Positions 25,146 through 62,730 of a DNA stretch of 64,000 nt are shown in pieces. Under the pieces are notes generated by a model. The model had not been told where the DNA came from, searched no databases, and saw only the letters and a program-made list of their open reading frames with translations. Numbering within the stretch: position 1 is the stretch's first letter; each line of letters opens with the position of its first letter. The position numbers and the translations under genes are program-made. Location of the stretch: assembly GCA_973895155.1 (NCBI GenBank), contig OZ316891.1:10479875-10543874 (forward strand), written 5' to 3'. The DNA is from Marsupella aquatica (lineage: Eukaryota > Plantae > Marchantiophyta).

Positions 25146-26301
25146 ATGTCCTCTTCCTCTGAACTATCCAGTAGTGAGTACTCCTCTGATGATGATATAC
25201 CCCCTCCTCCTCAGCCGAGGTTACCGGTCCTCGTGGTCCACCCCGAAGACTTTGTGACTGCACCAGATGTGTGGGCCAAATTTCTCAAAAATCTTATGTG
25301 TGTGCTCAACATATCGAGAGATATGGACGTCTTACTCCCGGGGCTTCTTCATCCCACATAGTAAGTTTGTTTCAATTGATTGCCATTCTTTACTCTTATT
25401 TTTAGAGGTGAATCAATGTTTACACATATGGTTTACACAAATGGTTGTTTGTGGGTGTTTGCATGGAATAGGGATCCAGTATGCGTAGATTGGTGACACC
25501 ACCACCCTATGTCTCATCACAAGGAGTTTTAGATGCTATAGGCAATGCACTTTTACAAGCCTTGGGTTTGGGAATCAGTACCAGTCATGGGACAGAAGGG
25601 GAACACCCTCATGTGCCCACTGAGACACGAAGACCCCGGTCTAGGCCCCAGTCCAATAGGAGGCCACAAGCACCCAATGACCCATCCAGAACACTAGTTC
25701 AGGGTAGGTGGGGTGTTTGTTCATTCACTGGCAAGTGTGCCTCTATCATCAAGGATTGGGAACCTATCACTCTTGGCTTGCCTTATTTTACAGATTTGAT
25801 GAGGAGATTGTGGTTTGGGGTAGACGTTGGATTGTGAAAACTTCCACACTTGGAGAGAGACATGGATATGGAGTATTTGCTTGTGAGGATATCATCATGG
25901 ATGAGGAGGGTGGGTCAAGTGTTTGTGGTAGAGAGGGTCCTACTTTGTTCCCATACGGTGGACCCATCTACAAGAGAAGATATTGGAACATAATCCTTGC
26001 ACAACATCCTAAGTGGAAAACATATGCTCTAGAGATGGATACTTTTGATGGTAGCACTAGAAGGTATAGTGAGCAGCGGGTGATAGACGGTGATCCCATA
26101 CGTAATGGGAATATTGTTGGTTTCATAAATAGTATTGTGGGGACTCGGCCCAAGCATAGGGCCAATTGTGAGTGGGTTTTTACTGATGGTCCAATGCCGG
26201 CACCATATGGCACGACATATCATAAGGACCATTGCTTAGTTCTTGCTACTAGGACCATTAGAGCAGGAGATGAGTTATTCACACACTATGAGTGGGATTA
26301 G
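25146..26301 (+). CDS. CACTA-1 cargo gene with a C-terminal SET domain (putative lysine methyltransferase); probable frameshift near 25795
   Basis: ORF 25708-26301 has SET motifs in order: VKTS..GYGVFA, PYGG, YAL, IDG, GNIVGFINS, ANCE, VLATRTIRAGDELFTHY. Upstream exon-like pieces at 25146-25341 and about 25470-25795. Confidence 0.8.
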
Positions 26302-33000: not shown

Positions 33001-33203
33001 CACATAAACCAGAGCCAAGTTATTTTTGACATTGCTTCTACTCCGTGAGACTGAGTTGGGCAGGACATCTTCTGACGTGTACTTAAACCTCAGATTACGG
33101 TAAGTACACTACGCATACCATCTTTGTACTTGTTTGTTGCCCTTCTCCATAGACTTCTTGTAATATTTAAGGTAATTGTGCAGATCCACACATCACATCA
33201 GGC

Positions 33204-33902
33204 ATGGCACGGGCTGCTACTGCATGGCTGGATCCAAAGTTTGCCCATAAAGAGCACCTTCGCATGGATCCCCCTTGTTGTTTTGAATGTGATGAGGGAG
33301 GTACTGTTTTGTTCTGCGATGGGCCTTGCAGTCGTCATTTCCATTACTTAGTTGTTGGGCAGGATCCCGAGGAGCCTGATGGCCATGGGTCTGAGTGCAC
33401 ACGCATTGCCATTTCTAGAGGGCATGATTGGGCCAAGGAATGGCTCTGTGAACTCTGCCAGCAGAACCGAGGTCGTTGCTTTGCTTGTGGACTACTTGGC
33501 CGAACCCTAAAGCCCACTACAGATGAGCCCCTTGTGGTTCAATGTGCACAAGATGATTGCTTTTCTTTCTATCACGTGGGTTGTCTGCGGACCATACTGA
33601 GGGCAAGGGAGTTGCCTCTCTTGGGGTATGCAGAGAACTTAGATGCACATCCCGCTGCTCTGATATGCCCAAGGCATTATTGTAATGTTTGCAAGGAGTA
33701 TCGGGATGGCATCTGGGAATTTATCCAGTGTCGTAGGTGCCCTCGTGCGTGGTGTAGGGATGAGGGACCAGAGGCAGACAAACACCTCAAGAGAGGGGTG
33801 AAGGGTAGAGAAATGTGGGATATTGGACCATGGCGTATGGTGTACTGCAATCGCCATGTCATTCCAGAGGGTTCTGAGGTGCCACCACATGATTTCAAAT
33901 AG
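33204..33902 (+). CDS. Stand-alone EDM2/NSD-type composite PHD-finger protein (232 aa, intact, intronless), CACTA-2 cargo
   Basis: CFECDEGGTVLFCDGPCSRHFH..WLCELC..CFACGLLG..VVQCAQDDCFSFYHVGC..ICPRHYCNVC..FIQCRRCPRAW..MVYCNRHVI follows the Cys/His order I recall for the EDM2 PHD region. Confidence 0.82.
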   Translation: MARAATAWLDPKFAHKEHLRMDPPCCFECDEGGTVLFCDGPCSRHFHYLVVGQDPEEPDGHGSECTRIAISRGHDWAKEWLCELCQQNRGRCFACGLLGRTLKPTTDEPLVVQCAQDDCFSFYHVGCLRTILRARELPLLGYAENLDAHPAALICPRHYCNVCKEYRDGIWEFIQCRRCPRAWCRDEGPEADKHLKRGVKGREMWDIGPWRMVYCNRHVIPEGSEVPPHDFK

Positions 33903-43429: not shown

Positions 43430-43601
43430 ACATTATTTAAAAACACTCTGTATGACACCCTCAATGACACCATATATGACACCATGTATGACACCCTCAA
43501 TGACACCCTGTATGACACCCTCAATGACACCCTATATGACACCCTGTATGATACCCTCAATGACACTCTCAATGACACCTTGTATGATACCCTCAATGAC
43601 C
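43430..43601. repeat. 12-bp tandem repeat (TATGACACCCTC/AATGACACC), CACTA-2 subterminal array, resuming at 55121-55205
   Basis: Direct reading; the array continues after the MULE insertion. Confidence 0.9.
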
Positions 43602-44314
43602 GGGTATGATAGCCATGACAGAAAACAGAAAACAGAAAACCTGTTACCAGGGGTTTATTTTCTGTTAACAGGGAAATTGTACCTGTTACCAGTAAGCTTG
43701 TCCCTGTTACCAGTTTTGCCTGAACCATAACGTGCATATCCACCACTCTAAGGTGCATATCCACCACTCTAATGGCATAATTTTTCGGGGGGCAATAAAG
43801 TTTAAAACAAACAATTATTTTATGCCATCCGATGGATGAAGTGTACTATCAATCCTCCATTGACACAACAATTTATTGTAGAAGATAAAAAACATGGTAT
43901 TAGGAGTGTGCCTAAAGAAACATTCATGCAAATTCATCTATTTTCATCGCCAAATAGTGACCCTTAGAGTGGGACCCACCATAGCACATGTCAATCGTGG
44001 AGTCCAAATCAACCCAATCTAAAGGAGTTGATTAAATGGACCTTGTAACGTCACAAACAAATGACAAATCACATCCTCGAGGCTTTGAAGACAGTAGACA
44101 ATTTAATCAACTTACACATTTTAAATAAAACAAGAGGTCATTCTTCCACAATGCACGTACATAATGAAGCAATGAATATCCAGTTTCCTAGAACCAGCGC
44201 CTTGCGCTAACCAACAAAGTCTCAATAAAACAACTAAAATATCCGTTGGAAAAAGACAAAATAGGGAATAATCGTTATATTGAACGACGACCTATTGGGC
44301 AGTTTCAATCTCTC

Positions 44315-47300
44315 TCATAAGCCATTCAAGTTCTGCCTCTCCAGCACAAGTCTGACTTCGCCTAAAGTCAAAATAGGTTGGCTACAAAGAGTCGACTCCT
44401 CAATCTCAAGTTTGAAAACATTTATGTACACCCAGTATAGATGTTTGCAAGGCATGTACGACTTGCCACGCGAATGTCGGAGGAAGAAGTCTTCACAAGA
44501 GCAAGCGGGGAAGATACAGATTTGGACAAAGTATGTGCTTGGTGATCGATGGTTCTCATGGGTTCGAATTCGAAATTGCTTTCCAAAAGCATTTACGGTC
44601 TGAACATTCCATTCCCCATCCAAACTCATCACTTCTTATCGTGCAGACTCCATTCGCTTCGTGTGACCCACAGTGAGATTAGACCGAGGCCTTGAGTTCC
44701 TCCCATTCCGACTACCAAGTCGGAGATTCGGCTCCAAAAACCTTATTGTTTATGGGAACACGTTAACATTTATCCTGAGGTCAAAAGCAGATGGCGCAGA
44801 TCGACTCAATCCTGTTGTTCGCTCTAAGACAAGTCCTTGCTCTTCCAGTAATTTCAGAAGGAGACAGGCTCGTACCCTTCAGAACAGGAAAAATGTCAGG
44901 AAAAGGAGGAAGCTTCTAAACACCATGACGCGGATGACTCTTGTAACATGCTTGGTTCGGGCAAAACCAAATCATTTTGGAGATGGGTTCGCCCCTGAAG
45001 AGACGATGGCCCTTCACGACAATTCCGACAACACCTTCAGACGAATGGAAGCCAACCTTCTTGATACAATTTCGACACTCATCGCGATCCGAACTCCCAT
45101 TCAGTGTACCATTGCATTGCGGACCTGCTCCATACTTCGATGTCCGTCGCAACTGCCACTGCCCCGGAGGGACATCCTTCTCTAGCACAATCGTGCGTGG
45201 AAGTTGATTCTGAAGTGCTGCTGGGGCACTGAGCGGAGGTTTTGAGGATCTTGTTGTTCGGGTTGTTTGAGGAGTATAGTCCAGTGAATCAGTATCACTC
45301 TCTGATGTGACCATACCTGAGAGATTCACCGCCTTTGTGATAGGATGATCAGAACTTGAGGGAATAGAAGAAAAGTCAGTTCTGTTCAGGTTCTTCCTTT
45401 TCAAACCACGAGTATTTGGTGTGGTTATTAGAACGGTGTCATGCCGATGGGAATCTTGTGGAGAGACATTCCCAGTTGCATGTCCCTTCCTCTTCATTGA
45501 CTTCGTCATTATATCTCCATTCAGGGGAGTACTTCTTTCCAAATCGAATTCTGCTGCGTTAGATAGAAGCATATTAGTCGCTTCTTCAAACAATCTTGGC
45601 AAACCTGCTTAATCGGCGGAACGGAACGCCAATTCCCATATAGTTGGCCCCTTCCCCCGGTTCAAGCCTTTACGGTATGCACTGTATCCGGCAACTTGAG
45701 ACAGCACGGTTTTGGTCAACTTCGCAAGCTTCATAAAGACCGACCTTTTTCTTTGTAGCCGAGGCTTTCATGGACGCATGCCTTGATTCTGACCTTGTAC
45801 AGTTGGGGATCAAGGCACCTTCCTCAGCGCTTTTGCTCTGCCATACAAAAATGTCAATCGTAAGTAGTATTCTATTACCAGCGCCCGACGCTGGCAACAT
45901 AAATATGTAGAACAGGCCTGAAATACAATTTCAATGTTTAATACTGAATTCTAACTACATATTGGCTTCAATTTCTTGTACTACTTGTTTTGACGTGTAT
46001 GGAGAAAATAACCAGCGCCTGGCGCTAATATGAAGTTGATGAACATTACAGTCTAGATAGATGGATGCCTTACCACTCGAATAAAATTGCCCCACTGGCG
46101 CCAGCAAACAACCCACCAAGATATCCAGCTTTGCAGCATCTTCAGCTTTCCGGGGACACAGTTTCCTGATTGCCACCACACAACAATCTCTCGGGACACC
46201 CGGTATGCTGCCACAAATGATGGAGCATTTCTTAGTTTCTCCCAAAGTCTCCGATGCTCCGATTGACATTCTTCCAGTACTCCTTCCTTGGAATGACGAT
46301 GAAAAGATTGATAAAAGTGAAATGCATCAGAGCGCTCCCTCTCCGGGTCCGGGTGTCCACCAAACAAACATTTCGCACTGCATTCCATCCAGCTTGTGCA
46401 TTGTCGGCCATAAATCCTTGGATGACAACCTCCTGAAGTTCATTTTCTTTGCAAACCTCAATCATCACTCTCCATGCCTTTTCAAAAGACTCAGTGTCTT
46501 CACCTTTCAACTCGCATGTGAAAATTGTACACAGTGCACGGAAATTGTGGTCGTAGACGTGTGCGCTGAAAGTAAACCAATCCGTGGTGACACGCTGCAT
46601 CACATCGAAACTTACCCAGGCTCCTTCGAGTCTTCCACCCGGTTGCATCTGCCTCAAAAGATCCACACCCGAACCGTGACCTTTCACGGTCATTTTAAAG
46701 ATGTGAGGCCTATCATTCTGACATCCCTGACCTGGAAGCAAATACCTCTGGAGAAACGATACATGAATCCTCCTCTGCATTTGCGAGAGAAAATCTAATT
46801 CACCCCGACCTTTTTGGTCTATCCTAACTCTCCGACAAAGAGATGCAAACTTCTGCGGAGTGGAAAGGACCATCAGAGACTTCCATATTTCAGTTTCTTC
46901 GATATCGACCATGTCGTCAACATGTTCATAGAGAGATTTCACTAAGGACCCTGTAGCAGAATTCAAGATCCTTGCCGGTTTTGACAGAGGATTGGCTTCA
47001 TGTTTTTTTTAATTAGATCCTCAGCTATCTTCTCCGCACTCCTACATAAGGTTTTTCTACTTGGATGGTTGTGCTCACCTATATGAATTGCCAGGTGGGA
47101 CATATGACTACATGTTTCCGCATCAAGTAATACTTGGGGGTACATGTAAAACAAACGGGCAGTGCAGTACTTCACACAAAAAGGAATCTGTTCGTAGTAA
47201 TGACAAACAACACCTCCCTCTTCGATGAAAGATCCCACAGCATACTGACCACTGAGCTTTGGAGTACCCTGCCATGCCTTAGCATTTGCCTTCTTCTTCA

Positions 47301-48057
47301 TTTGGAAATAGTCGCAGGACTTGTTCCTGCATTCAATGAATCCCGTACAGGTAACCTTCCCAAACTGCCAAAGGTTTTTAGGATGAACAGTTGCAGTTGT
47401 TGGAAATATGCGTGTCTAAATGTAACAATCTTTGGCACGATCCATGTCCCTAAGCCTAGAGCCTTTAGAGAGCATCTTATCAATGGGCGGCAACTCAAAC
47501 ATGACGTTACCATTGTACTTAGTTGGCAGACAGGACACTTGTTCATGCCTGAAATCACCCACTGATATGAACCGTGACAACTCACTATGACCAGTTGATT
47601 TGAGTAACGTATCCATCGCATTGCGCCGGTACACGACCTCCAACTGCTTAGAGCTTCCCGGAGTCTCAGCTTTCATGACAACAGGGAGCAGGATTTTTTT
47701 CTTCGACGGTGGACTTAGAGTACGATCTCCATCCTCACTTGAAGAAATCTCAACCACATCACATGGAACTGGCGGGAAACTGGACAGCCCTGCATGCTGT
47801 CTTAAATGAACCGAGTACGAGATCCCTGCGTAGAGATGCCAAAACCGTTCACCGTCATCGACATTGAACGTTGCAGCATCCTCGATATCATCAATGGATT
47901 CGAGCTCTCGAACAATGGCCTCAATGTCATTCATCTTCAAATCAAATCTCCCGGAAAGATACCTCTCCCGGACCTGCTTGTATGTATATTCCATGGGGAT
48001 GGGGATAGTCACAATATCTTCAGAACCGAATCGAGAAAGAACGATAGACCGAGACAT
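44315..48057 (-). pseudogene. MULE transposase (Zn-ribbon DNA-binding region, DDE core, C-terminal SWIM finger), disrupted
   Basis: C..C..LAIHIGEHNHP; WVSFDVMQRV; GFMADNAQAGWNAVR; DAFHF; SESRHASMK; SWIM PACSCEDF..PCKHLYWV. Intron at about 46074-45839; frameshifts and stops. Confidence 0.85.
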
Positions 48058-49021
48058 GGTGAACAAAAACAAAAACCGAGGGCTATAGCGTTTGAAAGAA
48101 GAAAAGTTCATGGTATTGTTCAGCTTATATTTGTCGAACCTGGGAATTTGACGTTAACCGATCCGTTTGTATACGACATAAAACATAGACGATGGAGGAT
48201 CCGTTGGCACCATAAATGATTTTTGTCGTTTTTTCCCCGATAAGTCCGGATGTCAGACACGAACATATTGCTAAAAAGATCACCAACCTTACTTAAACAG
48301 ACCGTAAGATATGACAAGGTATTGTCAAATTTTAGTAGCGCCTGGCGCTAACTAAAATACGCCACTAAAAATGTGTCTGAAATCTCGACATTCCAAACTA
48401 GCGCCCGACGCTAGTATAGAATAAATTCCCTGAAAATGAACATTATGACCACATACCAGGTGGTAATTGGGAATAAATGGTGCCTTCAAAGGATGGTTTT
48501 GATGGATTATGGATGATAAATGAACATTTATACTAGCGTCGGGCGCTAGTATTACATTTGAGAAATATTTCTCCGTAAACGATGTACTGAAGGACACTTT
48601 AATAAAATATGGGGGTGGAAAGGCCAAAATTTATGTCATAGCTCCTTCAAAAAAGACCTCTAAATTTCTTCCAGTTTATACTAGCGTCGGGCGCTATTAT
48701 AAGCATACTCTAAATTGTTCCCCTTGATGGTCATCATTAATGCTAGCGCCCGGCGCTAGTATTGATATGATGTTAGGAAATGTCTTTAACGGTAACATTT
48801 AACGGTAACTTATGACTTCCGTGTGTGTTACGCATCTTCTACCGTTTGATTTTGGTAATTAAACCTTCCGTATACAGACGTTGGAAACCGCCAAACATCA
48901 GAGCTAATGGCTTTCCTCTAGGTTATGTCTTCCTCCCGCTAGAATATATTACACATTCAGAGATGATTATAGTTCCATAATTTCATTGTACGATAGTTCG
49001 TACGCTTCTAGAAGGAAGACG

Positions 49022-52000
49022 ATGGAGGTATTTCCCTCTTCTTCCAGAGGGTATAGTGCGGTTCCTGACCAGGAGCGAGCTTATTTTGAATCTTCGCAGT
49101 CTTCATTTACTGGTTCAGTCTATACACGTTGTATAACTCGTTCCTCAAAGTTGTTGCCGCTCACTTCTATCAGCGGTGTTTTGGGTCCAAATCCTTTGCG
49201 AAGAAAGATGGACAACGTAGACACAATTGTGATCTAGGATGTTGCGGATTGCGCGCTTGCTGAGACTGATCTCATTTTGAAACATGTCATGTCTTTTGGA
49301 AAGGATTCTCATGGATTTGACAAGGAGCCGCCTCGAATCCCTCTGTGTCGATTGGTTCACATGGAGGTGGTTCGTACTCTGCAGAAAGACAGCTCTTCCA
49401 TCGAGAAGCTGAAAGACTCTTTTCGTAGTATGGGTTACAAATCTTTGACAGGGATGCATTTCTATGTGCAACCAACGGATGAGAACAAAATTGTTCTGAC
49501 CTATACCCAGGACATTCGTGATTCATGGGATCCAATATGGCAATTGGAGAACGAGAAGTTTGAGGCTGAATGCGAGGCTGACCCGGATTTTCTCGTCTTG
49601 AAGGATAAGATGTTCTCTGTATTCGATGGAAATCACAGGCTGTACTCCTGGACGCTTGTAACAGAGGAGAACCCGGACAATCCAAAATATCATCCTCGTG
49701 TGCTCTGTACAATATTTAAAGGAGACAAGGGATCTCTCATTGAAATTGAGGCAGCTATGCACACCGTGAATCAGTAAGTTCTCATGATTTCCAGTTCTTT
49801 CCTTAAATCTTGCGAGTGTTGTATTTACTAGCGCTCGGCGCTGCTTATACATGAATTGTTTTTCATTGACTCTTACTCTCAACGTTTGTTCGTCTAGGCT
49901 TGGCCAAGCAGTTGTAGAGCCTTCTTGGATCCTGGATGCGGACAGAATCAAACAAATTCTGGCGCATGACCTTGAGTATTACAGTAAACTGATTGACCCG
50001 GGTAATTTCAAGAAGTTTGAAAGCATTCGGCTGAAAACTCGGAAGGGGTCATGGTATACGAAGAAGATGCCACAAGAAGCACTTGTTTACATTCTTTGTG
50101 AGAATAAGATAAAGTCGTACTCGCATCAATTCAAACTCGACATGGAGGCAGCGGAGGCTCAAGGGAGTCCATGGTCGGCGGATGAGATTTCAAAATGGCA
50201 TGCGGCCATGATGAAAGACGCAACCAAAGATTGGGCAGTGAAGTCTTCAAAAATTACGCCCTTATTAAGTCCTGAATTTGAAAATTTCCTCAGTACATGT
50301 GCAGAAATGTATGCTGTCACAGAGAGAAACAAGAGAGAGAAGAAGACTGACACCGTTGTATGTACGATGGACCGCGCACGATTGTTCACCGCTGTTTCTG
50401 CTCTAGACCCAAAGTTACGAAGCACTTTACTTGTGGCACATTGCAATCCTGAGCTGCGGAGACAGTTTTTTCACCTAGCAAGTGTTAACGATGATCCAGT
50501 CAAATAGTGGTGCCACACTTGGATCACTTGGAATAGTGTGGAGGGAATTGCTGCTGGCATGTTACATTCATGTCTACGTGAAGTTGAGCAAACCATGCCC
50601 GCGAAGAGATTGGAAGAGTGGAATTGTAGTTCGTTTGATGATCTAGTTCAGTTTGTTACAAATGAATTCAAGAGATTTGGTGATTCCGTGAAGAATAAGT
50701 TCTTTCACACTATGTGGCCTTCAAAGTACCCTGACAAAGAAGATTACACCCAGAGAAACCAGAAGCGAGCGAAGAGGTTTGTGTATAGGTTCTACATGCA
50801 CATGGAGGTAACCAAACCTGATTACTTCTGGGCATATCCTGCAGCTTTTATGAAGTGGATTTCAATAAGTGAAGATGATGCCTTGGCTGATTTGTACTCT
50901 ATGTACCCCACAAAGGGCATATTTCCTCCGAGACCAATGACAGAATGGGAGAGAACTCACTGCCCCTGGTATCTAGATACAGATAGATGGGATTCTCCTT
51001 TTGATCAAAGGGAAAAAGATGCCTTCCATAAGCTTTCAAAGTCTCAGATGCCAGCAAAACTTGTGTCCGACATGAAGCAGGGTCTACTTGACGATGTAGA
51101 CAAGTCTGCCACAAACTTGCAAACTATCTGTGAAACAACTGTTGTGCATGTGGACCGGAGTCGCAAACCTCGCGCGAAAGCCAAAGCGGAGCTAGCAGCA
51201 CCGAGCGAGTCTACTAAATCTGGAAAGAAGAGTAAGTATTGCTATCCATGATTTTGCCAGCGCCAGACGCTGGCAAAAAATATTCTGTTGAGGGTATTCT
51301 TTTTCTTGGTTATTAGGCTTCGGTTGCGACTTAAGTGAATTGCATTTGGTTAGCGCCAGGCGCTAGCTTCTTTCAATACTTTAAAAGTACTTATTCTAAC
51401 TACGACCTGGTTATATTTTAGGAGGGAGGAAGTCTAATACGGTGGGAACGGGAGATCCAAAAAAGGATGCTACACCTGAAGTTTCCGAGGCAAACACGGG
51501 AGCTCAATCGGACCCCATTACTCCAGTCGACAAAGGGAAGGTTATAGTTCCTATCGACGCCACGAGTACCAGGAAGAAACGAAAGAGAGCTGTCAAAGGT
51601 GGACAATCTTTAAGGGAGAGTGTTATAGCTTCTGGTTTCCAACGTGAAGTTGGAAACTTCAAAACAACTGTGTCTCGCCATTGCATGGTTGAGACAAGCC
51701 TTTCTGAATTTTTTGACTCGACGTTCAACAAGGAGGAGAAGCCCGAGTGGGTTAGTGATGTGGAGAAATGGGGAAAAGACCTCGTTAAGTTGGGATTTAA
51801 AGAGAAGGGAGTTGTTCGGGGGGGAAAAGTAAGATCGTTTGGAGTGGATGCCGGCTTCATTTACCTACCGACCGGGTTCAAACCATCTATCATTGATAAG
51901 AAGGTTCCTAAATGGAACATTCCAGATCACTCAATGGCTAGATCTTTTTTCAAATCCATGGATCCATTTTTATCAGATGATGGGTTCCTTGTAATTCTAC

Positions 52001-53112
52001 ACAATGGGGAGTACGATCCCATGTCGCAAGTCATTGCTGCCTGTCAGGAGTCAAGGAAATTTTAGTGTATATGCTTGCATAATGTTGTGATGTCTGACCC
52101 GATGTATGCGGCAAAGATAGACCGAGAGATGTTTACCCTCAGGCTCGACATATTTGGCCGAATTAATGGGAAATGTAAAATTCCCAAAGACCCCAAATTT
52201 CGGCCGCTGTCCATCAGTGAGGACCCTTCGGTTACCAATTTGATTGGACTCTCTTCGCTCAAATCAGATCCATTCCCGCAAATGGAGTTTGTTGGAAATG
52301 CTCGTCTGTCTGTGGGTTTTATGCAATCTGTTATAGAGCTTGTCACACGGCCTCGTGATATTTTTATGGATTGGACTGCTGGGGCTGGAAGCTCTTACAT
52401 TGCTGGCGACTTCTCTGGATGATTTGTACTCGGGATAGAACACCGGAAAGAATTTATTGAAACCGCTTCAAAGGTTTTCATGGATTTGTTGTCTCCCAAA
52501 GAGATTGCAGTGTTACCTCCACCTGTTCCTACTGCCGACAAAAAAAAGAGAGATAAGCTTCGGTCGGTTCTCAATTTTGATTCTGATGATGAATCGAGTG
52601 AAGGTGGAGAGGAACAAGGTACAAGAAACTCCGAGGAGGAAAAGGGAGAGCGTCGTGCAGCTGCAGATGAAACCGATAGTGATGACTCTTCCGAGTAATG
52701 TTCATAAACTCGTAAGCTTCTTTCTCCATTCCCGTCAATTCATAACATTTCTTTTGTTGTTTTGGGGAAAGGCGCCTTACAAAATGGACTTTGTTATATC
52801 AGGTCAGAGTGGAATGCAAGGAGACGATTCAAACTGCGGAGGAAGATCGCGAGACACAACTTAGAAACACCAGAAAAACCGTTTGTTCTTCCCTCCTATG
52901 CAGAGAAAGCCGCAAGGAAAGCAGAAAGTGCAAGGACACTTTGTTGGGAAAACAAAGGTCTTTGGTTACGAAGGGGTGTTGACCGAAAGTTCATTAAACA
53001 TCCTTATGTTGATGACTTCTCCCGCAGCCAGTACGTAGATGATGAGGCTGTGTCCACGAACAGATCCTAGAGTACAGATTCTGGTTCCGATTCAGAATCT
53101 TCGGAACCATGA
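49022..53112 (+). pseudogene. MULE cargo gene: N-terminal ParB/Srx-like domain fused to a C-terminal beta-class amino-DNA-methyltransferase-like domain; 4 exons, 5 in-frame stops
   Basis: ParB-like IPLCRL..VR..IEKLKDSF..GY..VFDGNHRLYSW. MTase-like VDAGFIYLPTGF..WN..FLSDDGFLVILH..SVIELVTRPRDIFMDWTAGAGSSYIAGDFSG*FVLGIEH. Introns about 49774-49888, 51232-51421, 52695-52802. Stops at 49235, 50505, 52063, 52420, 53068 all read through in frame. Confidence 0.75.
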
Positions 53113-53384
53113 GAAGTAGTGGGTAGTTGAGGCTAAATCTTTTAGCAGCACCCGGCGCTTGTAACATCTGTATTATTTCCCTCTGCTGAGGGTCCTTTTA
53201 AATTGTTGATTTCTCTCTACTTGTTGATTACTTTTGACTTCTATTCTTTACAAGCGCCTGGCGCTCGCCAAATGGAATCTCTAAATGGCCGTTTAGTCTT
53301 TGTCGTTTCCTGTCAATGGTCATCGTCATTGGATACCAACTGCCATTTGGATTGTGTTCTTTAGTCAGTCGTCGAAAAGCCGTT

Positions 53385-53800
53385 GGGGACCATAGTTTCG
53401 GGACAATGATTCCATAGTTTAGGGACCGGGCGGAAGGGACGACTATAGTTTCAGTTTAGGTTTGTTCGGGATGACGAGAGTTGGGGACGTCGATAGTTGA
53501 GGACGACGATAGTTTCGGGAGGACGATAGAATGGGACGATAGAACGGGACGATAGAACGGGAGGGGAGACTTTGTTTCAGGAGGACGATAGAACGTGACG
53601 ATAGAACGGGACGATAGTTCGTTTGGGAAGACTTTGTTTCGGGAAGACGATAGAACGGGACGTTAGAGCAGGGCGATAGAACGGGACGTTAGAGCAGGGC
53701 GATAGAACGGGACGTTAGAGCAGGGCGATAGAACGGGATGATACCTGTTACCAAGGCGAAGATAGTTTTGGGAGGCAATAGAACGGGACGATGATAGTTT
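53385..53800. repeat. Tandem array GGACGATAGAACG (13 bp) and a 25-bp variant inside the MULE
   Basis: Repeated GACGATAGAACGG and GTTAGAGCAGGGCGATAGAACGGGAC units. Confidence 0.85.
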
Positions 53801-56800
53801 GATGGTCGTTTTGGAACGGTAGTGTACGCGGACCTTTATCTGGCGTCTTAGTCTTTGCGGACCTTTCTTTGGCCTTTGTCGGCTATAGCACTCGCGGACG
53901 ACATTCTTATGGGAGGAGAGGTTACATATTAGATCGGGATCTTTGAAACATGGTGAGTCAGTATGAGCCAATGGATTGGGAGGCAGCTTTTCGTCCTTCT
54001 CGTGTGCGTCCGGAAGAGAGCCATTTCAGCTCTTTTGAATCGCGAATGGAGACTGAAGAAACTGAAACTTCCACTTTTCGGAACCGTCATGCTCTCCCGT
54101 ATGATGAGGCTATTAGTCCTGGAGAGAAGAACATCCCTTGGATTGTCGATTCCCCTGCGCCTCCGTTCTCTAGTCGGTTTTCATCTCACCCGGGAGTTCT
54201 TGTTGATGGGGTACTCCCAATCAATTGAAGAGGACAAGAAATGTTCGGGCGAGTTGATTTTAAGGACAGTAATATTCCTAATGAACATTTTACGAGGGCT
54301 GTTCATCGAGGACCTTCAGAGGGATACGTTCGTTTGCGTGGTCTCGGCTTCAAGAAAGATCGGCGGAGAGAAGCAGCAGGAGTGGATGATGATTGCAACT
54401 CGGAAAGCTAGATGGAAATTTTGTTTTGCTGATCGCTTTAAGCTAGCGCCGGGCGCTGCTAAAGTTTTCCGGATTTTGTGGCATTGAAGTCGACCTCAGC
54501 TCTGGCGTTAGGGTTTTCCCGGTTGTCTACTATTTAGGTTTTGGCTAGCGCCGGGCGCTATTGAAACGACAACGGATTTTGTGGGAGGGAATGGATCTTG
54601 ACTATGTTGTCTGGGTTTGGATGCATCTTGTCTCCAAGAAACGACTAGTTTTCTAGTTAGTTTTTGGCTAGCGCCGAGCGCTTTTCATGTATTAGTCGAA
54701 AACCTCCGACGGTGTCGACCGTGACTTCATGGATGGGATTTTTAGGCCAGATTGTTGATGTTGATAACTGCATTTTGTATCACTTAAGTCGAGCGCATTT
54801 TCTATTTTGCGATAATATATGCAAATGTTTTTTCCGGCCTTTCTTTTCTACTTGTATTTGTCTTGGATTTTGTGTATCTCAATTGGCAACCGTCTTTTAT
54901 GTTTCAAAAAAAAATTTCCGTGTTGTTCTTTTATTTATCACGAGGGTTTGGTGGTTTTGGTTTCTATTCTTGTACTTTCAAATGGAGATTTTGAGACCTT
55001 TTTTTAAGATCACTGTTCACGACCATCCAAACACTGTTCACTGGTAACAGCTCCTTTTAACTGGTACCAGAATCTATTTCCTGTTACTGTTATCTGTTTG
55101 CTGTCGTTTGTAAATTCCCCCAATGACCCCTTGTATGACACCTTGTATGACATTTTTAATGACACCATGTACGACACCTTCAATGACACACTAAATGACA
55201 CCTTAAATGATTTATTATTGTGTCATTTATGACATGTCTGAAATGACATATAATGACAACCGTGCGTAGTTGCCACGTGTTGTAATATGATTTGTTTAAA
55301 TATGTGTCATTAAAGATATGCCTAAATGACTGACGGCCGTTCATTCAGTCATTTAGGACAACATGTCATTTCAGAAATATTGTGTCATTTAGGACTACCA
55401 TAAATGACTGGTGAGAGTTTTAGTCATTTGTCTTAATTGACTGTCCTAAAAGACGAGGCAGGTATGACAGAAAAGCTCTAGTCATATATTGGTACATATG
55501 ACTCATTTTTCAGTCCTCATTCTAGTCATTAAGGACACTATTTTCCACTAGTGTATCACAAGGATCGAGCATCGACCTTCAGCTCCATGGGTGCTTCCTG
55601 TTGGCCAGAGAAGGGAGTTTCGGAATCGCATAGGAGACATGCGGTTTCCTATCAATTATGGTGCCAATCTCCGAAAGGCCTTTGGGATGGAGGACAATCA
55701 TAAGTGGCCAAGGTATCTCAAGACACATGACTACCATAGGTTACTGCAGCACATATTGCCTGTGGCCATAATAGGTTTGGCAAGTGAAGAAGTGCAAGAT
55801 GCCCTTTGGTCATTGGGAAAACTTTGAGATGGGTATGCTCTAAGAAGATATATACTGACGAAATCCCTGGGATGGAGGTTTTGGCAACAGAGGTAGTATG
55901 CAAGTTGGAGAAGGCCCTTCCTCCTTCCTTTTTTGACTGTCAAGTGCATTTACTTGTTAATCTTGTTCATGAGGTGGCCATTGCAGGTCCTATGCATTGT
56001 CGGTGGATGTATTGGCTAGAACAATACATAGTAGTGTTAAAAGGTTATATACGTAACCGATTTCTATGAGGATGCCAAAAGTAACAGAACAAGATCAACA
56101 ATTTTTCCAAAGTACCTTGACTATATGAAGGAGAAGTTAGTTGAGGTGGATGACATGGTGGTCAGGGGAGAGAGTGTATAATTACATTTTCCAGCTATCA
56201 CAGAATGATGATGTTTGTACCATTGTTCATGGTCCCTTGAGAGTGGTTATGTCAACAAGGACAGCAATGTGGACACAAGGAAGACATTTCAGGTGATCTC
56301 CATCTACCTTAGTAACCTTTTATTTGAATCACTTGGTTTAATTTAATTCATTTGTAATTGATTTCACAAGCACGTATATTGAAGAGGCAGATTCTTGGTG
56401 TGTTCCATTAATTGGAATATGTTTGTGTCTATTTTTGTGTAACATGTCCTTATGGTTTGATGAATTTTAGGATTTCTTCCCTTGATGAGAAGAGGGGTCG
56501 TACCTTTGATTGTGGAGTCCAAGGACAATTCTCTCAAGATTCTCGCAACAGTCGCCATGACACGAATATTATTCGAGATATTGTGTCACATTATGGAAAG
56601 GTAGAAGAGATTCTAGTGATATCTTATGATGCACAATCAAAGTTTGAAGAGTATGTCTTCAAGTGCAAGTGGTTCAAAGTGAACCTTGCAGGTAACAATC
56701 CTACTGTGGTTCAAGATGAGTGTGGATTTACACGATTGAAGATGTCTGCCACTAGTTTCCAGCCATCTCATTGGCAAACATCAGAGCCGTTAACTTTTCC

Positions 56801-59800
56801 AAGTCACGTGGAACAATGTTTCTATATTTCATACCCCCCAAACCCAGAGGAATGGTCACTTGTCATCACATATGTGCCACGGTCTCGTTTAATCGTTGGG
56901 GAAAAGCCTAATATTCTGGTTGTGTCCCAACCTGAAGATGATGAGGACCAAGTTTGAGGAGTTTGTGTTTGTGGATATATAGCTACACGGATATATAGTT
57001 AGATTTGACGATATGAAGATTTCTCTTCTCGGTAGAATGGAGAAATATGTGCTTCTCAATTATTAATAAACTTATGTTTTGTAAGTATATTATTTTCAAA
57101 TATTGTTTTCTATATCTCCCATCCCTACCCCACACTCACCACACCTTTTGGTAGACTTTCTGCAAAGAAAACTCATGTTGCTTGTAGTCCTCTATCCTCC
57201 GTGCTTTCCTAATCCCCCCTAGCCTTTCTCCTTATTACTTGTACCCACCTCCCTCCTCCTTTCTTTCATTGTCTGTCCCTCTTATTAAACCCTCCTTCCT
57301 CCTTCCTCTCCTTGTCCCAACCCCTTTCTATTTCAACCCTATACTTTCCTTACTTTCCACCCCTGTCCCCCACTCTTACCTATACAACCTAGCTTCTCTC
57401 CTCCCTCCTAAACCTATACCCTTAAACCTCCCTCATTTCCTTGTCCCTTTCTAAACCAATACCCTCCCTCCTTTCCTTGTCCCTCTCTAAACCCTAAACT
57501 CCCTCCTTTTTATTTTCACTCCCTAAATCCAAACCCTCCCTAAAACTATATCTACATACCCTTCCTCCTCCCTCATTTCCTTGTGCCCCCTAAACCTGTA
57601 TTCTCCCTCTTGGATCCCTCCGTTCCTTGTCCCTCCTAGCCCCATTCCCTTCCTCCTCCTTTACTCTCCCTCCCCAATCCCATTCCTTTTCCACCTCTTT
57701 GAAGCGCTCATAATATTTTGCGAAACATCTTGCAAAACCCCGACCCCCGCAAACTCATCGCTAAATTTGCGATACTAAAATGCTCGCTAATTGCCATCAT
57801 AAACTTATCACAAACTTCCAAAGAGACCACCCTCTCAACGTTGCGAAACCAAAAACTTCACAAAATGAGACCCTAGACAGGCACAGGATTTGCGAGCCTA
57901 TTACTATCGCAAGTTAGCCATTGCGTAAACATCGCTCATTTGCGAGACAATAAGGCTCGCAAAATAGTTTGAGATGCTAAAATATTCGCAACTTGTTAGT
58001 TGGCCGGCGCATCGCAATGAAACTGCGAAGCGGTAAAGATCGCTAAATTTTTCAATGATAATTACTTAGGAAATTTTTTGCGATACGTGAAGTATCGTAA
58101 AATGTTGCGATCGTCTAAGTTTTGCAATTACGTGTTGCGATGTGGATAGATTTGCTAAGTGCGATGCGTATCGTATCGCAAGTTTAGCGATGAGATTAAT
58201 CTTGCAAAGCTTTCTTCCTCCTGTAAAATGCCTTCGCAAAATTGGCAGATATGTAGTAGTGACTATGGAGACTTGGTATGGCCAACGGGCTTAGAGTTCA
58301 ATAAAGCTCTCTTGTGTGTTCCCGTGGACATAGCCTCGAGGAGGTGAACCACATATCTCTTGTGTCAACTACTTGCGCGTTGGATGTGTCATGTGCTTAC
58401 TGTTGCGAGTGTCATCTATGCTCAACAATTCCTTGAGTGCAAGGTGCATTGGCTTGACATATGTGTGTAATCAGATCGGACCGGATCGAGCACGTATTGT
58501 TGGCATCGATCGTTGTTTGGATTCTATTGAGATTATTGTGGATTTGGACATGTGTGGACATGAGTTCCACTTGTATTTAATTCTCTTGTGTTTGTGATAT
58601 GGTAGTGTGATTATGTCTGGATGTATGTGACAAGCGATGTATGTTGTGTAGCGATGAGTATGCGCATGACACATATCATGACAAACATTTTGAGGTAGAT
58701 TGATCTCTTCAAGAATTGGAGAGAGTATTTTCAGCACACTGATGAGTACCATGAATATTTGTGGGCGATCCTGGATATGTTGGAGCAGACAGCTTCATCA
58801 TACGCAGGTTTGGTGGGACAAAAGATACTCAAGGCATGAGTGTTGGTACTTTGAGAGCATGGAACAAAATGCATGTTGGATACAAAATCAAAGTTGAGTG
58901 GGGAATCAAGGGAATGAAAAGAAAATGGCATCGACTGATGAAAGGATATGATTTGCGGAAGTGCAAATTCAAAGAGTTCCTTCAAGCTATAGTTCTATTG
59001 ACAAATTTCCTCCAACGGAAACAAAATGATTTCAGTGAAATGATAGAGGGGGAACCAATTGAAGACAATTATGAAGCAGCATGGTTGGGTTGGAGACTAC
59101 CCAAGAGAGTTTGCCATGTACAGAAAATCAAAATATTAGATTGAAGTGTGGGCGGACAAAATTTGCTCTATAGCAATTTCCTGAAGTTCAAAATTTTGTA
59201 ATGTATGAGTTAATGATTAATCTAAAATCATTTGTCAATGCTGCTATCTATCTAAAATCTGTTCAAACTACATAGATTTTGAACTCATGAGCTACAGTGT
59301 CAAAATTAGCTGTACTTGCTCTTTGAAGGTCTCTTCCAATATGCATCCCAGGTCCCTGGCCTTTTTCAGGTTGTTGATTTTGATCTTTTCCTGTAGTAAG
59401 CTTTCTCCCTATATGAAGCAGGTGGCTTCTTTTGTTTGGGGACTTGGGACTTTTGAGGATAATGTCTCCTAGTTTGAATAACATTGGCTTCTTTTGTTTG
59501 GGGACTTGGGACTCTTGAGGTTAATGTCTCCTAGTTTAAATAACATTAGCCTGATTGCCCCTTCTTCAAACATAAAGAAAGGCTAAACATTTTTGGTGGC
59601 CATTTTCAGAAACTAGCCCTGCCCCCAATCAATGTTTTCCACTAGCACCCTCAATTTCAATTATGTTCCCAAAGTCCGAGTCTAGAGGTTTCGATCACTC
59701 AAGACAGGTAGGCCCTCAAGTGTAATAGAGGTCTCTAGACAATATAGTGTAGTTAGATTACATAACTCGTGTAATATTGTCAGCGCTTCTGGCAACAATG

Positions 59801-61021: not shown

Positions 61022-62730
61022 ATGGAAGCATTGGCGAGCACCAGCTGCTGCACGAGAGGATCGGCGTTGGTAACACAATGGTCAGGACTGAGGAAGCAGT
61101 CAGGCAAAGCTGCACTTCCTGCTAGCGCTGCTGGTGCTCTTCCACAGGGGAAGAAGGCGGCCTCCAGGGTGGTCAGGATGGCGTTGGCCGTCGACCAGAA
61201 GGCTTATGTGACCACGAAGTCCGAGGAGATCTTCGCGGCTGCGAAGGTTTATGGCCTTTCTACACGCGCTTCACTTCGCTTGAATTTGTCCACAGCTTAG
61301 GAAGCACTCTGTGCTGACAGAGACTTTTTTCCTGCCGTGTGGCAGGAGCTGATGCCGGGAGGTGTCAATTCCCCCGTGAGAGCTTTCAAGTCTGTAGGTG
61401 GTAGCCCCATTGTCTTGGACCGGGTGAAGGGCTCTCGTTCCTATGACGTAGACGGAAATGAATATATCGACTATGTAGGGTCCTGGGGCCCTGCCATCCT
61501 TGGCCATTGTGATGACCAGGTATAATCTCAAAGAAGAGCACCAATATTCGTTCGATTGGTTAATGTCTTGCAAATCTCCTTAAGTTTTTCTAGTCCCCTT
61601 GATGTCAAATGCTGTTGTGCTGTTGGAATTTTGAGAAGATTCTCGTTGGGTGTTTATCTCAGATAAATGCAGCTTTGATAGAGACCTTGAAGAAGGGAAC
61701 TAGTTTCGGTGCTCCGTGTCTTTTGGAGAACCAGTTAGCTGAGCTGGTCATCGCAGCAGTCCCTAGCGTGGAGATGGTTCGAATGGTCAACTCCGGTACC
61801 GAAGCCTGCCTGTCGATGCTCCGTTTGTGCCGGGCCTATACCAAACGTGAGAAGATTCTCAAGTTCGAGGGCTGCTACCATGGTCATGCTGATTCTTTCC
61901 TAGTGAAAGCGGGCAGCGGTGTTGCCACTTTAGGTTTGCCAGATTCGCCTGGAGTTCCTAAATCATCTGCTGCGAGCACTCTGACTGCACCTTACAACAA
62001 TCTCGAAGCTGTTGAGAAGATGTTTAAGGAGAATGAGGGAGAAATTGCAGCTGTCATTCTGGAGCCAGTTGTTGGAAATGCCGGGTACATTGTCCCAACA
62101 ATCGAATTCCTCAAGGGTTTGAGGGAAATTACCAAGAAGAACGGTGCTCTCCTCGTCTTTGATGAAGTCATGACAGGTTTCAGGATATCTTATGGTGGTG
62201 CCCAAGAGTACTTCGGCGTCAGCCCTGATATCACAACGATGGGAAAAATTATTGGGGGAGGACTTCCCGTGGGTGCCTATGGTGGACGGAGAGACATTAT
62301 GGAGTTGGTCGCCCCAGCTGGCCCTATGTACCAGGCCGGTACCCTCAGTGGAAACCCCTTGGCCATGACAGCTGGGATAGAGACCTTGAAGAGATTGAAG
62401 GTACCAGGAACTTATGAGTACTTGGACAAAATTACGAAGACTCTTGTTGAGGGACTGAGCGCAGCAGCAAAGGAAGCAGGACACGAGTTTACGTCAGGAA
62501 ACATTAGGGGCATGTTTGGATTCTTTTTCCAAAATGGCCCGGTTCACAACTTTGAGGATGCTAAGAGGAGTGACACAGCCAAGTTCGCCCGATTCCACCG
62601 AGCAATGCTTGCAAAGGGAGTCTACTTCGCACCTTCTCAGTTCGAGGCAGGATTTACAAGCTTGGCCCATACAGAGGAGGATATTGCTTACACCATAGAG
62701 GCTGCCAAGGAGGTGTTCAAGTTTATATGA
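61022..62730 (+). CDS. GSA: Glutamate-1-semialdehyde 2,1-aminomutase, chloroplastic (3 exons: 61022-61246, 61346-61519, 61663-62730)
   Basis: Transit peptide, then [58 protein letters not shown] lysine [21 protein letters not shown]; canonical GT-AG introns. Confidence 0.97.

Follow-up and report, generated by a model that had tools for sequence, protein, structure and literature searches.

The stretch analysed here is a 64,000-nucleotide segment of the genome of the liverwort Marsupella aquatica (contig OZ316891.1, positions 10,479,875 to 10,543,874; referred to below as the window), a plant-like region crowded with CACTA remnants. It is interrupted by an 11,518-bp insertion (43602-55119), likely a DNA transposon of the Mutator-like element (MULE) type, which carries a minus-strand transposase gene and, divergent from it, a plus-strand gene of four exons (49022-53070, about 1,100 codons), termed the cargo, whose product is predicted to join a ParB-like fold to a methyltransferase fold. 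Sixteen copies of a short palindrome are dispersed through the non-coding DNA of this element, and the explanation favoured here, by a modest degree of confidence, is that they are parS-like loading sites for the cargo protein, serving self-regulation or anti-silencing of the element.

A palindrome dispersed in the non-coding DNA of the element

A scan for AGCG-N5-CGCT returned 15 copies in the window, every one within the element; other spacers from 0 to 15 gave 0-2 matches each, all of them outside it. A sixteenth copy, at 53147, has one change in an outer half-site. The full 15-mer described in an earlier note on this DNA occurs exactly at 48336, 48744, 51351 and 54546 and is absent from 100 shuffles; allowing up to 3 mismatches raises this to 19 matches where 0.48 would be expected; all lie in 44195-54683, and three of them are chance matches within a 26-bp tandem repeat. 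The consensus of both strands reads TTTACTAGCGCC.GGCGCTAGTAAA, with a 13-bp core, weaker symmetric flanks that extend the symmetry to 19 bp, and A/T-rich surroundings (29% GC); in size and location this agrees with ParB-type sites, palindromes of about 13-16 bp carried on the same element. Core positions 1-3 and 11-13 are invariant in 16/16 copies. Nine deviations from AGCGCCNGGCGCT were counted, eight of them at positions 5-9 and eight of them C>T or G>A. The earlier note had pointed to a CCNGG core, but the conserved part of the word is the outer AGCG..CGCT: CCNGG is intact in 8/16 copies, the outer CG in 31/32 cases. Past 6 bp, flank similarity among the copies is 32% (best of 120 pairs, 48%) and among random non-coding pairs 30%, so the copies are not fragments of a single inserted repeat, the outcome that the earlier note had set against its own reading; a repeat scan found no tandem arrays around them. 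In five other window stretches any spaced 4-bp palindrome reached at most 9 copies and the top words were A/T runs.

None of the 16 copies falls in the inferred exons, while coding DNA makes up 61-67% of the element and non-coding DNA 33-39% (P 2e-8 to 3e-7); exons were inferred from reading frames and GT-AG sites, and those of the cargo are backed by relatives. The transposase intron has two copies, the region between the divergent genes five, cargo intron 1 one and cargo intron 2 two; the other six stand behind genes (one behind the transposase, two behind the cargo and three behind a further open reading frame, ORF). The avoidance of exons and the counts per compartment thus agree with the earlier note; of its statement that the remaining copies occupy 3' and terminal regions only the first part stands, as no copy occurs within 594 bp of the left end or 437 bp of the right end. 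Its view of the palindrome as a candidate binding site gains support from a word that is real, confined to the element and non-coding. The fixed 5-bp spacer, the invariant outer arms and this confinement point to the site of a two-fold symmetric protein, gained repeatedly.

Contigs of runs X1, X2, X3 and X5 (three organisms), at several identity levels, span the full length of the element, so it belongs to a multi-copy family with diverged subfamilies. Across the promoter stretch the depth of run X2 contigs rises at the motifs and that of run X5 lies almost wholly in motif bins; no contig of run X6 aligned there. One diverged subfamily (runs X1 and X2) matches 48328-48358 only, 31 nt with one difference; of the 30 adjoining letters 17 are, by eye, the same as in the window, and judged from this alignment the motif at that position appears to stay in place while its flanks drift. 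Several joints of whole-element contigs also end or resume at motifs (44191, 48358/48532, 51344). Close copies show seven listed differences in 481 bp, 3/7 of them at inner motif positions, and the palindrome core tolerates change among them.

On 48729-48768 run X5 returned many very short contigs made of the motif and a few flanking bases, with a summed depth >25,000, as well as a contig on which two copies of the motif stand about 32 bp from each other. These motif-only contigs may represent a motif-bearing satellite or another abundant family.

The probable Mutator-like element and its cargo gene

The cargo is divided among three large parts and a short C-terminal exon (Table 1). A search with exon 1 gave 18 relatives at E<=0.1, of which 17 were aligned, and FDGNHRL, YxPR and N188 are invariant in 18 sequences, the first of them holding the GxxR motif typical of the ParB/Srx superfamily; a search among longer proteins found none. 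The model of this N-domain (pLDDT 84) has as its top 12 structural matches ParB, Noc, KorB and PadC (Z 6.3-7.2, rmsd about 3 Å over 91-104 residues), with sulfiredoxin ranking below them (Z 4.4-5.6), and its top Foldseek match is ParB-CDP (probability 0.99). The N-domain is accordingly predicted, from this model, to adopt a ParB/Noc/KorB-type fold. All three large parts occur in one protein of Riccia sorocarpa, P0095 (E 1e-24 with exon 1, 9e-32 with exon 2). Exon 4 is found as the same exon behind the same gene in the locus L122 (E=9e-15) and matches the C-terminus of Riccia P0072 weakly (E=0.002); a local phmmer search of exon 4 against the collected proteins gave no match.

Exon 3 has 88 matches among proteins. 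Twenty of its clusters were looked up and 11 were named, all from the liverworts Calypogeia fissa or Riccia sorocarpa. Its profile matches beta-class methyltransferase structures (DpnA, E=8e-9, CcrM, MboIIA and rotifer N4CMT; E 8e-9 to 5e-3), the order of motifs is IV ... I as in that class, and the S-adenosylmethionine (SAM)-binding motif I (D-x-x-x-G-x-G) is largely kept (35/51 aligned rows). Motif IV reads xLP[T/S/N]G in the family and YLPTG in the window, and neither the canonical [S/D/N]PP[Y/F/W] nor an aromatic fourth residue was found in any of 49 aligned relatives, a count that omits rows gapped at the motif and the 1,598-residue P0083, which has canonical DPPF motifs and matched in motif I only. 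The alignments (A1-A3) comprised 40, 17 and 14 sequences chosen from the 88 matches, plus the query. In amino-methyltransferases of this class the aromatic fourth residue forms a stacking contact with the flipped base, and activation of the amino group falls to the first residue. The methyltransferase fold of the cargo is therefore probably inactive. Riccia sorocarpa has many cargo paralogues (P0051, P0061, P0070, P0072, P0081, P0087, P0095, P0100 and P0102), several of them auto-named 'trimethylguanosine synthase'; these paralogues keep the Asp of motif IV and not its aromatic residue.

Scans for related loci found none in viral contigs or prokaryote genomes; their single match was a short metagenome contig. 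Viral contigs scanned for paired motifs yielded 121 loci; the richest of these are coding or consist of tandem repeats whose cores differ, and a tblastn search of the loci returned a single weak match, to methyltransferase motif I. The extended 19-bp pattern occurs at 75 viral loci (GC >=50%, <=3 copies each, no tblastn match), and a 23-bp pattern in 0 prokaryote contigs. On one giant-virus contig (L073:4021-4146, 39% GC) three longer perfect hairpin-like palindromes centred on AGCGC...GCGCT lie within 130 bp; no relation of these to the element was found.

The insertion has GGG...CCC ends, with degenerate and weak inverted similarity over about 28 bp only, and is flanked by a target-site duplication that can be read as 9 bp including one mismatch or as 8 identical bp, in the MULE range of 8-11 bp. 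An 8-bp duplication is compatible with other transposon superfamilies too, and the left copy sits within a 12-bp tandem array, which makes it less diagnostic. Non-palindromic CTGTTAC-type repeats, likely the sites of the transposase, cluster within the terminal 110 bp and differ from the palindrome, as the earlier note had proposed for a terminal motif. By eye the minus-strand gene has a Cys/His-rich N-terminal part, a DDE-like core and a C-terminal SWIM-like finger, and MULE transposases are described with a WRKY-GCM1 DNA-binding domain, a DDE core and a C-terminal SWIM domain (PMC1702500). The assignment of the element to the Mutator-like superfamily is graded as likely only, since Pfam detects just SWIM in the transposase, at E=1.4, with no match to a MULE domain. 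The window copy is defective, with stops and frameshifts; at the frameshift positions, 46361 and 47002, other copies carry an additional base.

Table 1. Features of the element and copies of the palindrome, in window coordinates.
Feature	Position	Strand	Basis or remark
Likely Mutator-like transposon, defective copy	43602..55119	.	Ends, flanking duplication, contig cover
Left target-site duplication	43593..43601	+	9 bp with one mismatch or 8 bp exact
Right target-site duplication	55120..55128	+	Pairs with left copy
Left subterminal CTGTTAC-type repeats	43641..43713	+	Sequence scan
Right subterminal CTGTTAC-type repeats	55013..55087	.	Sequence scan
Transposase exon 1, Cys/His-rich part and DDE-like core	46074..48057	-	One stop, two frameshifts; no Pfam match
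Transposase intron, two motif copies	45838..46073	-	GT-AG splice sites
Transposase exon 2, broken, SWIM-like zinc finger at end	44315..45837	-	Pfam SWIM E=1.4
Cargo exon 1, predicted ParB/Srx-fold domain, invariant FDGNHRL	49022..49773	+	One premature stop
Cargo exon 2, helical middle region, DUF3723-like (lead)	49898..51231	+	One premature stop
Cargo exon 3, beta-class N4/N6 methyltransferase fold	51422..52694	+	Motif I kept, motif IV degenerate; two premature stops
Cargo exon 4, short, C-terminal, after motif-free intron	52803..53070	+	L122 match E=9e-15
Further ORF, about 150 codons, one stop	53948..54412	+	Reading frame
Motif copy 1, behind transposase	44196..44208	.	AGCG-N5-CGCT scan
Motif copy 2, transposase intron	45880..45892	.	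AGCG-N5-CGCT scan
Motif copy 3, transposase intron	46014..46026	.	AGCG-N5-CGCT scan
Motif copy 4, divergent intergenic	48337..48349	.	AGCG-N5-CGCT scan; apparently kept in diverged subfamily
Motif copy 5, divergent intergenic	48400..48412	.	AGCG-N5-CGCT scan
Motif copy 6, divergent intergenic	48535..48547	.	AGCG-N5-CGCT scan
Motif copy 7, divergent intergenic	48683..48695	.	AGCG-N5-CGCT scan
Motif copy 8, divergent intergenic	48745..48757	.	AGCG-N5-CGCT scan
Motif copy 9, cargo intron 1	49830..49842	.	AGCG-N5-CGCT scan
Motif copy 10, cargo intron 2	51259..51271	.	AGCG-N5-CGCT scan
Motif copy 11, cargo intron 2	51352..51364	.	AGCG-N5-CGCT scan
Motif copy 12, behind cargo	53147..53159	.	One change in outer half-site
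Motif copy 13, behind cargo	53253..53265	.	AGCG-N5-CGCT scan
Motif copy 14, behind further ORF	54445..54457	.	AGCG-N5-CGCT scan
Motif copy 15, behind further ORF	54547..54559	.	AGCG-N5-CGCT scan
Motif copy 16, behind further ORF	54670..54682	.	AGCG-N5-CGCT scan

For the further ORF no family was found with Pfam or with local phmmer against the collected cargo-related proteins; a third gene or a captured fragment is possible. Between the cargo and this frame (53464-53790) lies a 13/26-bp GGGACGATAGAAC-type tandem array, in which the terminal CTGTTACCA word occurs once, at 53745. The insertion lies within the subterminal array of a CACTA element, made of 12-bp ATGACACC-type units and halved into 43452-43600 and 55122-55210 (to 55553), and one run X2 contig joins both array halves; a CACTAGTG word at about 55547 may mark the end of the interrupted CACTA element. 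Elsewhere in the window, SET-domain and NSD-type PHD-finger fragments (25708-26301, 33171-33902) adjoin CACTA transposase genes (26862, 36235) and are possibly chromatin-modifier cargo of those elements. A subterminal cluster of TCGCAA/TTGCGA-type words at 57700-58240, which ends in TAGTG, resembles CCVTCGCAAA, described as the motif of TnpA in Arabidopsis Spm elements (bioRxiv 10.64898/2026.08.24.746577). Host-like coding stretches for a class III aminotransferase (61603-62730) and a cytochrome P450 (12561-13289) are also present.

Candidate loading sites for the cargo protein and competing explanations

The cargo protein is probably the binder of the palindromes, because the transposase has terminal repeats of its own and the predicted fold of the cargo belongs to a family that loads at palindromes. 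Its ParB-like domain, which the earlier note did not name, is a better candidate partner for a dispersed palindrome than its methyltransferase fold. By analogy with ParB and KorB the cargo would be a sliding clamp gated by nucleotide, binding each palindrome as a dimer and spreading along the element; this spreading would regulate the two divergent genes and would likely keep the element less methylated, with the methyltransferase fold serving as a SAM- or DNA-binding module and not as a writer. Whether the outcome is anti-silencing or autoregulation as opposed to another self-serving role is an evenly balanced question, and KorB-like repression of the divergent promoter would be as plausible a direct effect as anti-silencing. 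In the exons of the element CG/GC stands at 299/329 versus 78/235 in neighbouring CACTA coding DNA (P=1.5e-11), and this retention of CpG fits a lineage that has long avoided CG methylation; the placement of the palindromes likewise parallels that of VANC21 motifs in VANDAL21 (PMC5735166), an anti-silencing system.

Several points weigh against the assignment of the palindromes to a cargo clamp. The Foldseek E-values of the N-domain are modest (at best 0.007-0.09), a structural Z <8 can reflect a common arrangement, and GNHR is reminiscent of DGQHR/DndB-type proteins as well (TIGR03187, E=0.055), so that clamp behaviour and use of CTP stay predictions. No helix-turn-helix or other sequence-specific DNA-binding domain was found in the cargo and its middle region has no Pfam match; a model of that region from P0095 alone is unusable (mean pLDDT 39). 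Cargo intron 3 (52695-52802) holds no palindrome, and L122, the sole locus of a distant relative, has 0 copies in 1,118 bp, a length too short for assessing whether motif and cargo change together. Among the family copies, the aligner selects any contig that holds the palindrome, which biases motif-only matches, and the outer half-sites of close copies show 0 changes against 0.6 expected, numbers too few to prove their conservation. The CpG excess could reflect the age of the family or codon use, and the host-like genes of the window have similar CG/GC values (0.58 and 0.82). A MULE transposase can, moreover, itself be a sequence-specific activator, as reported for AtMu1 (bioRxiv 10.64898/2026.08.24.746577).

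This last observation bears on the explanation that the element's own transposase binds the palindromes, as its transcriptional activator or at internal synapsis sites. AtMu1 transposase alone binds and hypomethylates its cognate copies (bioRxiv 10.64898/2026.08.24.746577), and the WRKY-GCM1 domain provides MULE transposases with a DNA-binding module (PMC1702500); the AtMu1 peaks are nevertheless placed at terminal repeats (bioRxiv 10.64898/2026.08.24.746577), whereas here the terminal 437-594 bp are free of palindromes and a different, non-palindromic repeat clusters at the ends, which leaves binding by the transposase unlikely. A host transcription or chromatin factor, for which the element would have accumulated sites to secure its expression, is an improbable reader as well: the five palindromes in the divergent promoter region would suit it, as would the run X5 contigs, from another organism, in which the motif with short flanks reaches a very high summed depth and thus occurs as a word in other contexts, but the remaining 52 kb of the window, with its host-like genes and several CACTA elements, contain 0 copies. 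The hint of the earlier note that an N4-cytosine methyltransferase might target CCNGG fares poorly, given that this core is the most variable part of the word and that the cargo fold has lost the canonical motif IV. In its broader form, an active amino-methyltransferase with an unusual active site that places N4-methylcytosine (4mC) or N6-methyladenine (6mA) in or beside the palindrome, it draws on the largely kept motif I, on the profile matches to beta-class structures, on the first Asp of motif IV retained by the Riccia relatives and on an Ectocarpus protein predicted to make 4mC or 6mA (PMC12477816). This explanation is nonetheless held to be quite improbable, as the aromatic residue is absent throughout the aligned relatives, in half of the sites CCNGG is broken, by C>T or G>A in almost every case, and the 33 further CCNGG that the element contains outside the palindrome are not singled out.

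Two readings that dispense with a binding protein have very little probability. The palindrome could fold into a stem of 5-7 bp with a 3-nt loop and five copies are intronic, as a short RNA or DNA hairpin acting in splicing, termination or stability would require; yet five copies are intergenic, the sense strand of the intronic copy at 51259 contains a C-A mismatch, the spacer is 5 in all 15 perfect copies and no stem has been swapped for another pairing sequence, and the constant spacer together with the lack of alternative pairing stems indicates that the palindrome is read as sequence. It is just as hard to maintain that small duplications or a tiny inserted repeat left the copies behind without any function: a few extra flanking bases are common to the members of two pairs (48535/48683 and 54547/54670), but flanks are otherwise alike at the random level, the outer CG is intact in all cases except one, and no copy lies in exons or outside the element.

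Relation to known systems and significance

The closest precedent for a cargo protein that would bind its own element is found in algae. In the Ectocarpus element Sola1-1_Ec32 a ParB-plus-methyltransferase gene lies opposite the transposase and its product is proposed to bind its own element; similar accessory proteins are cited there for green and red algal transposons (PMC12477816), and ParB-linked methyltransferases from phage loci have been noted in algae (PMC4738411). The liverwort cargo shares with these proteins the union of ParB-like and N4/N6 methyltransferase domains in one protein and the orientation of its gene opposite the transposase (PMC12477816). As far as the published domain description allows the likeness to be drawn, it differs from the Ectocarpus case in its Mutator-like carrier, its land-plant host, the absence of the catalytic motif across the aligned family and the visibility of a candidate site (PMC12477816); the string 'palindrom' is absent from the main text of that article, and no target was found in its text. 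In the literature searched no liverwort or Mutator element with ParB-like cargo, nor this motif, was found, and a target published in the primary algal reports is possible.

Among Mutator-like elements the nearest parallel is VANDAL21 of Arabidopsis. Its accessory protein, VANC21, binds its own MULE at a motif found in introns and in the non-coding DNA between genes and at the ends (PMC5735166). VANC21 and VANC6 resemble the present case in combining a MULE, an accessory gene and a short family-specific motif in non-coding DNA, but their motifs are asymmetric 8-9-mers that tandem repeats have multiplied in one orientation (PMC5735166), whereas here a palindrome of 13-19 bp with unshared flanks is found. 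VANC-type anti-silencing includes a loss of DNA methylation that the protein induces in trans; for the present element the CpG content could be at most an indirect sign of it. VANC proteins are, furthermore, MAIN-like (PMC13547354), and the cargo combines predicted ParB and methyltransferase folds with no VANC-type Pfam family in its exons. An exact VANC21 motif adjoining the copy at 48535 was judged to be due to chance.

In bacteria, KorB loads as a clamp at a 16-bp operator on its own plasmid, RK2 (PMC11790492). KorB-OB, ParB-parS and Noc-NBS share with the element a protein of ParB fold, as predicted for the cargo, encoded by the mobile element itself and palindromic operators that lie away from promoters (PMC11790492). 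The host here is eukaryotic, sites lie in spliceosomal introns and a methyltransferase fold is added, all unlike KorB; no ParA or KorA partner was seen in the element, and the OB operator (core TTTAGCGGCTAAA) is spaced differently from the present palindrome (PMC11790492). The element thus resembles KorB/OB in architecture and VANC/VANDAL in placement and is a member of neither.

A link of another kind leads to fungi. DUF3723 (PF12520) is described as an auxiliary gene of the fungal Starships with no known function (bioRxiv 10.1101/2021.12.13.472469; 10.1101/2025.02.28.640899). In a language-model search the N-domain of the cargo scored 0.94 for DUF3723, with 8/30 matches in DUF3723 clusters (the best cluster being 31% labelled), and the middle region scored 0.88, as its top two matches; the Pfam DUF3723 model gave no match for any cargo member scanned, at E up to 1-10, and the kinship suggested by the language-model scores is a lead. 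Starships, unlike this element, use a tyrosine recombinase, and in those reports DUF3723 is not described with a methyltransferase fold (bioRxiv 10.1101/2021.12.13.472469; 10.1101/2025.02.28.640899). The liverwort Marchantia also has proteins with a beta-class amino-methyltransferase fold, MpDN4MT1a/b, which are products of host genes, have an intact TSPPY and write 4mC at CG in sperm (bioRxiv 10.1101/2021.02.12.428880); the cargo lacks the catalytic motif, is transposon-borne and has a ParB-like domain added.

Transposon-borne ParB-plus-methyltransferase proteins of algae, proposed to bind their own elements, are thus already known; what is new is the candidate target site, the land-plant Mutator-like carrier, the lost catalytic motif and the resemblance to DUF3723 of the Starships. 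A bolder and rather doubtful generalization would be that a ParB-parS-type clamp was recruited by eukaryotic transposons, in which a DUF3723-related protein would load at private palindromes, slide and shield the element from methylation with a non-catalytic methyltransferase fold. With so sharp a candidate site, a direct test of binding, spreading and nucleotide dependence would need just one protein and a single 19-bp oligonucleotide. A sliding clamp would explain how one accessory protein acts across a 10-kb element from few short sites; the element also suggests that the methyltransferase half need not be active, and the class would be linked to the unexplained Starship gene DUF3723. If the bolder generalization holds, a CTP-clamp mechanism would operate on eukaryotic chromatin, and both the ParB-methyltransferase accessory proteins of algae and DUF3723 of the Starships would gain a function and a testable target.

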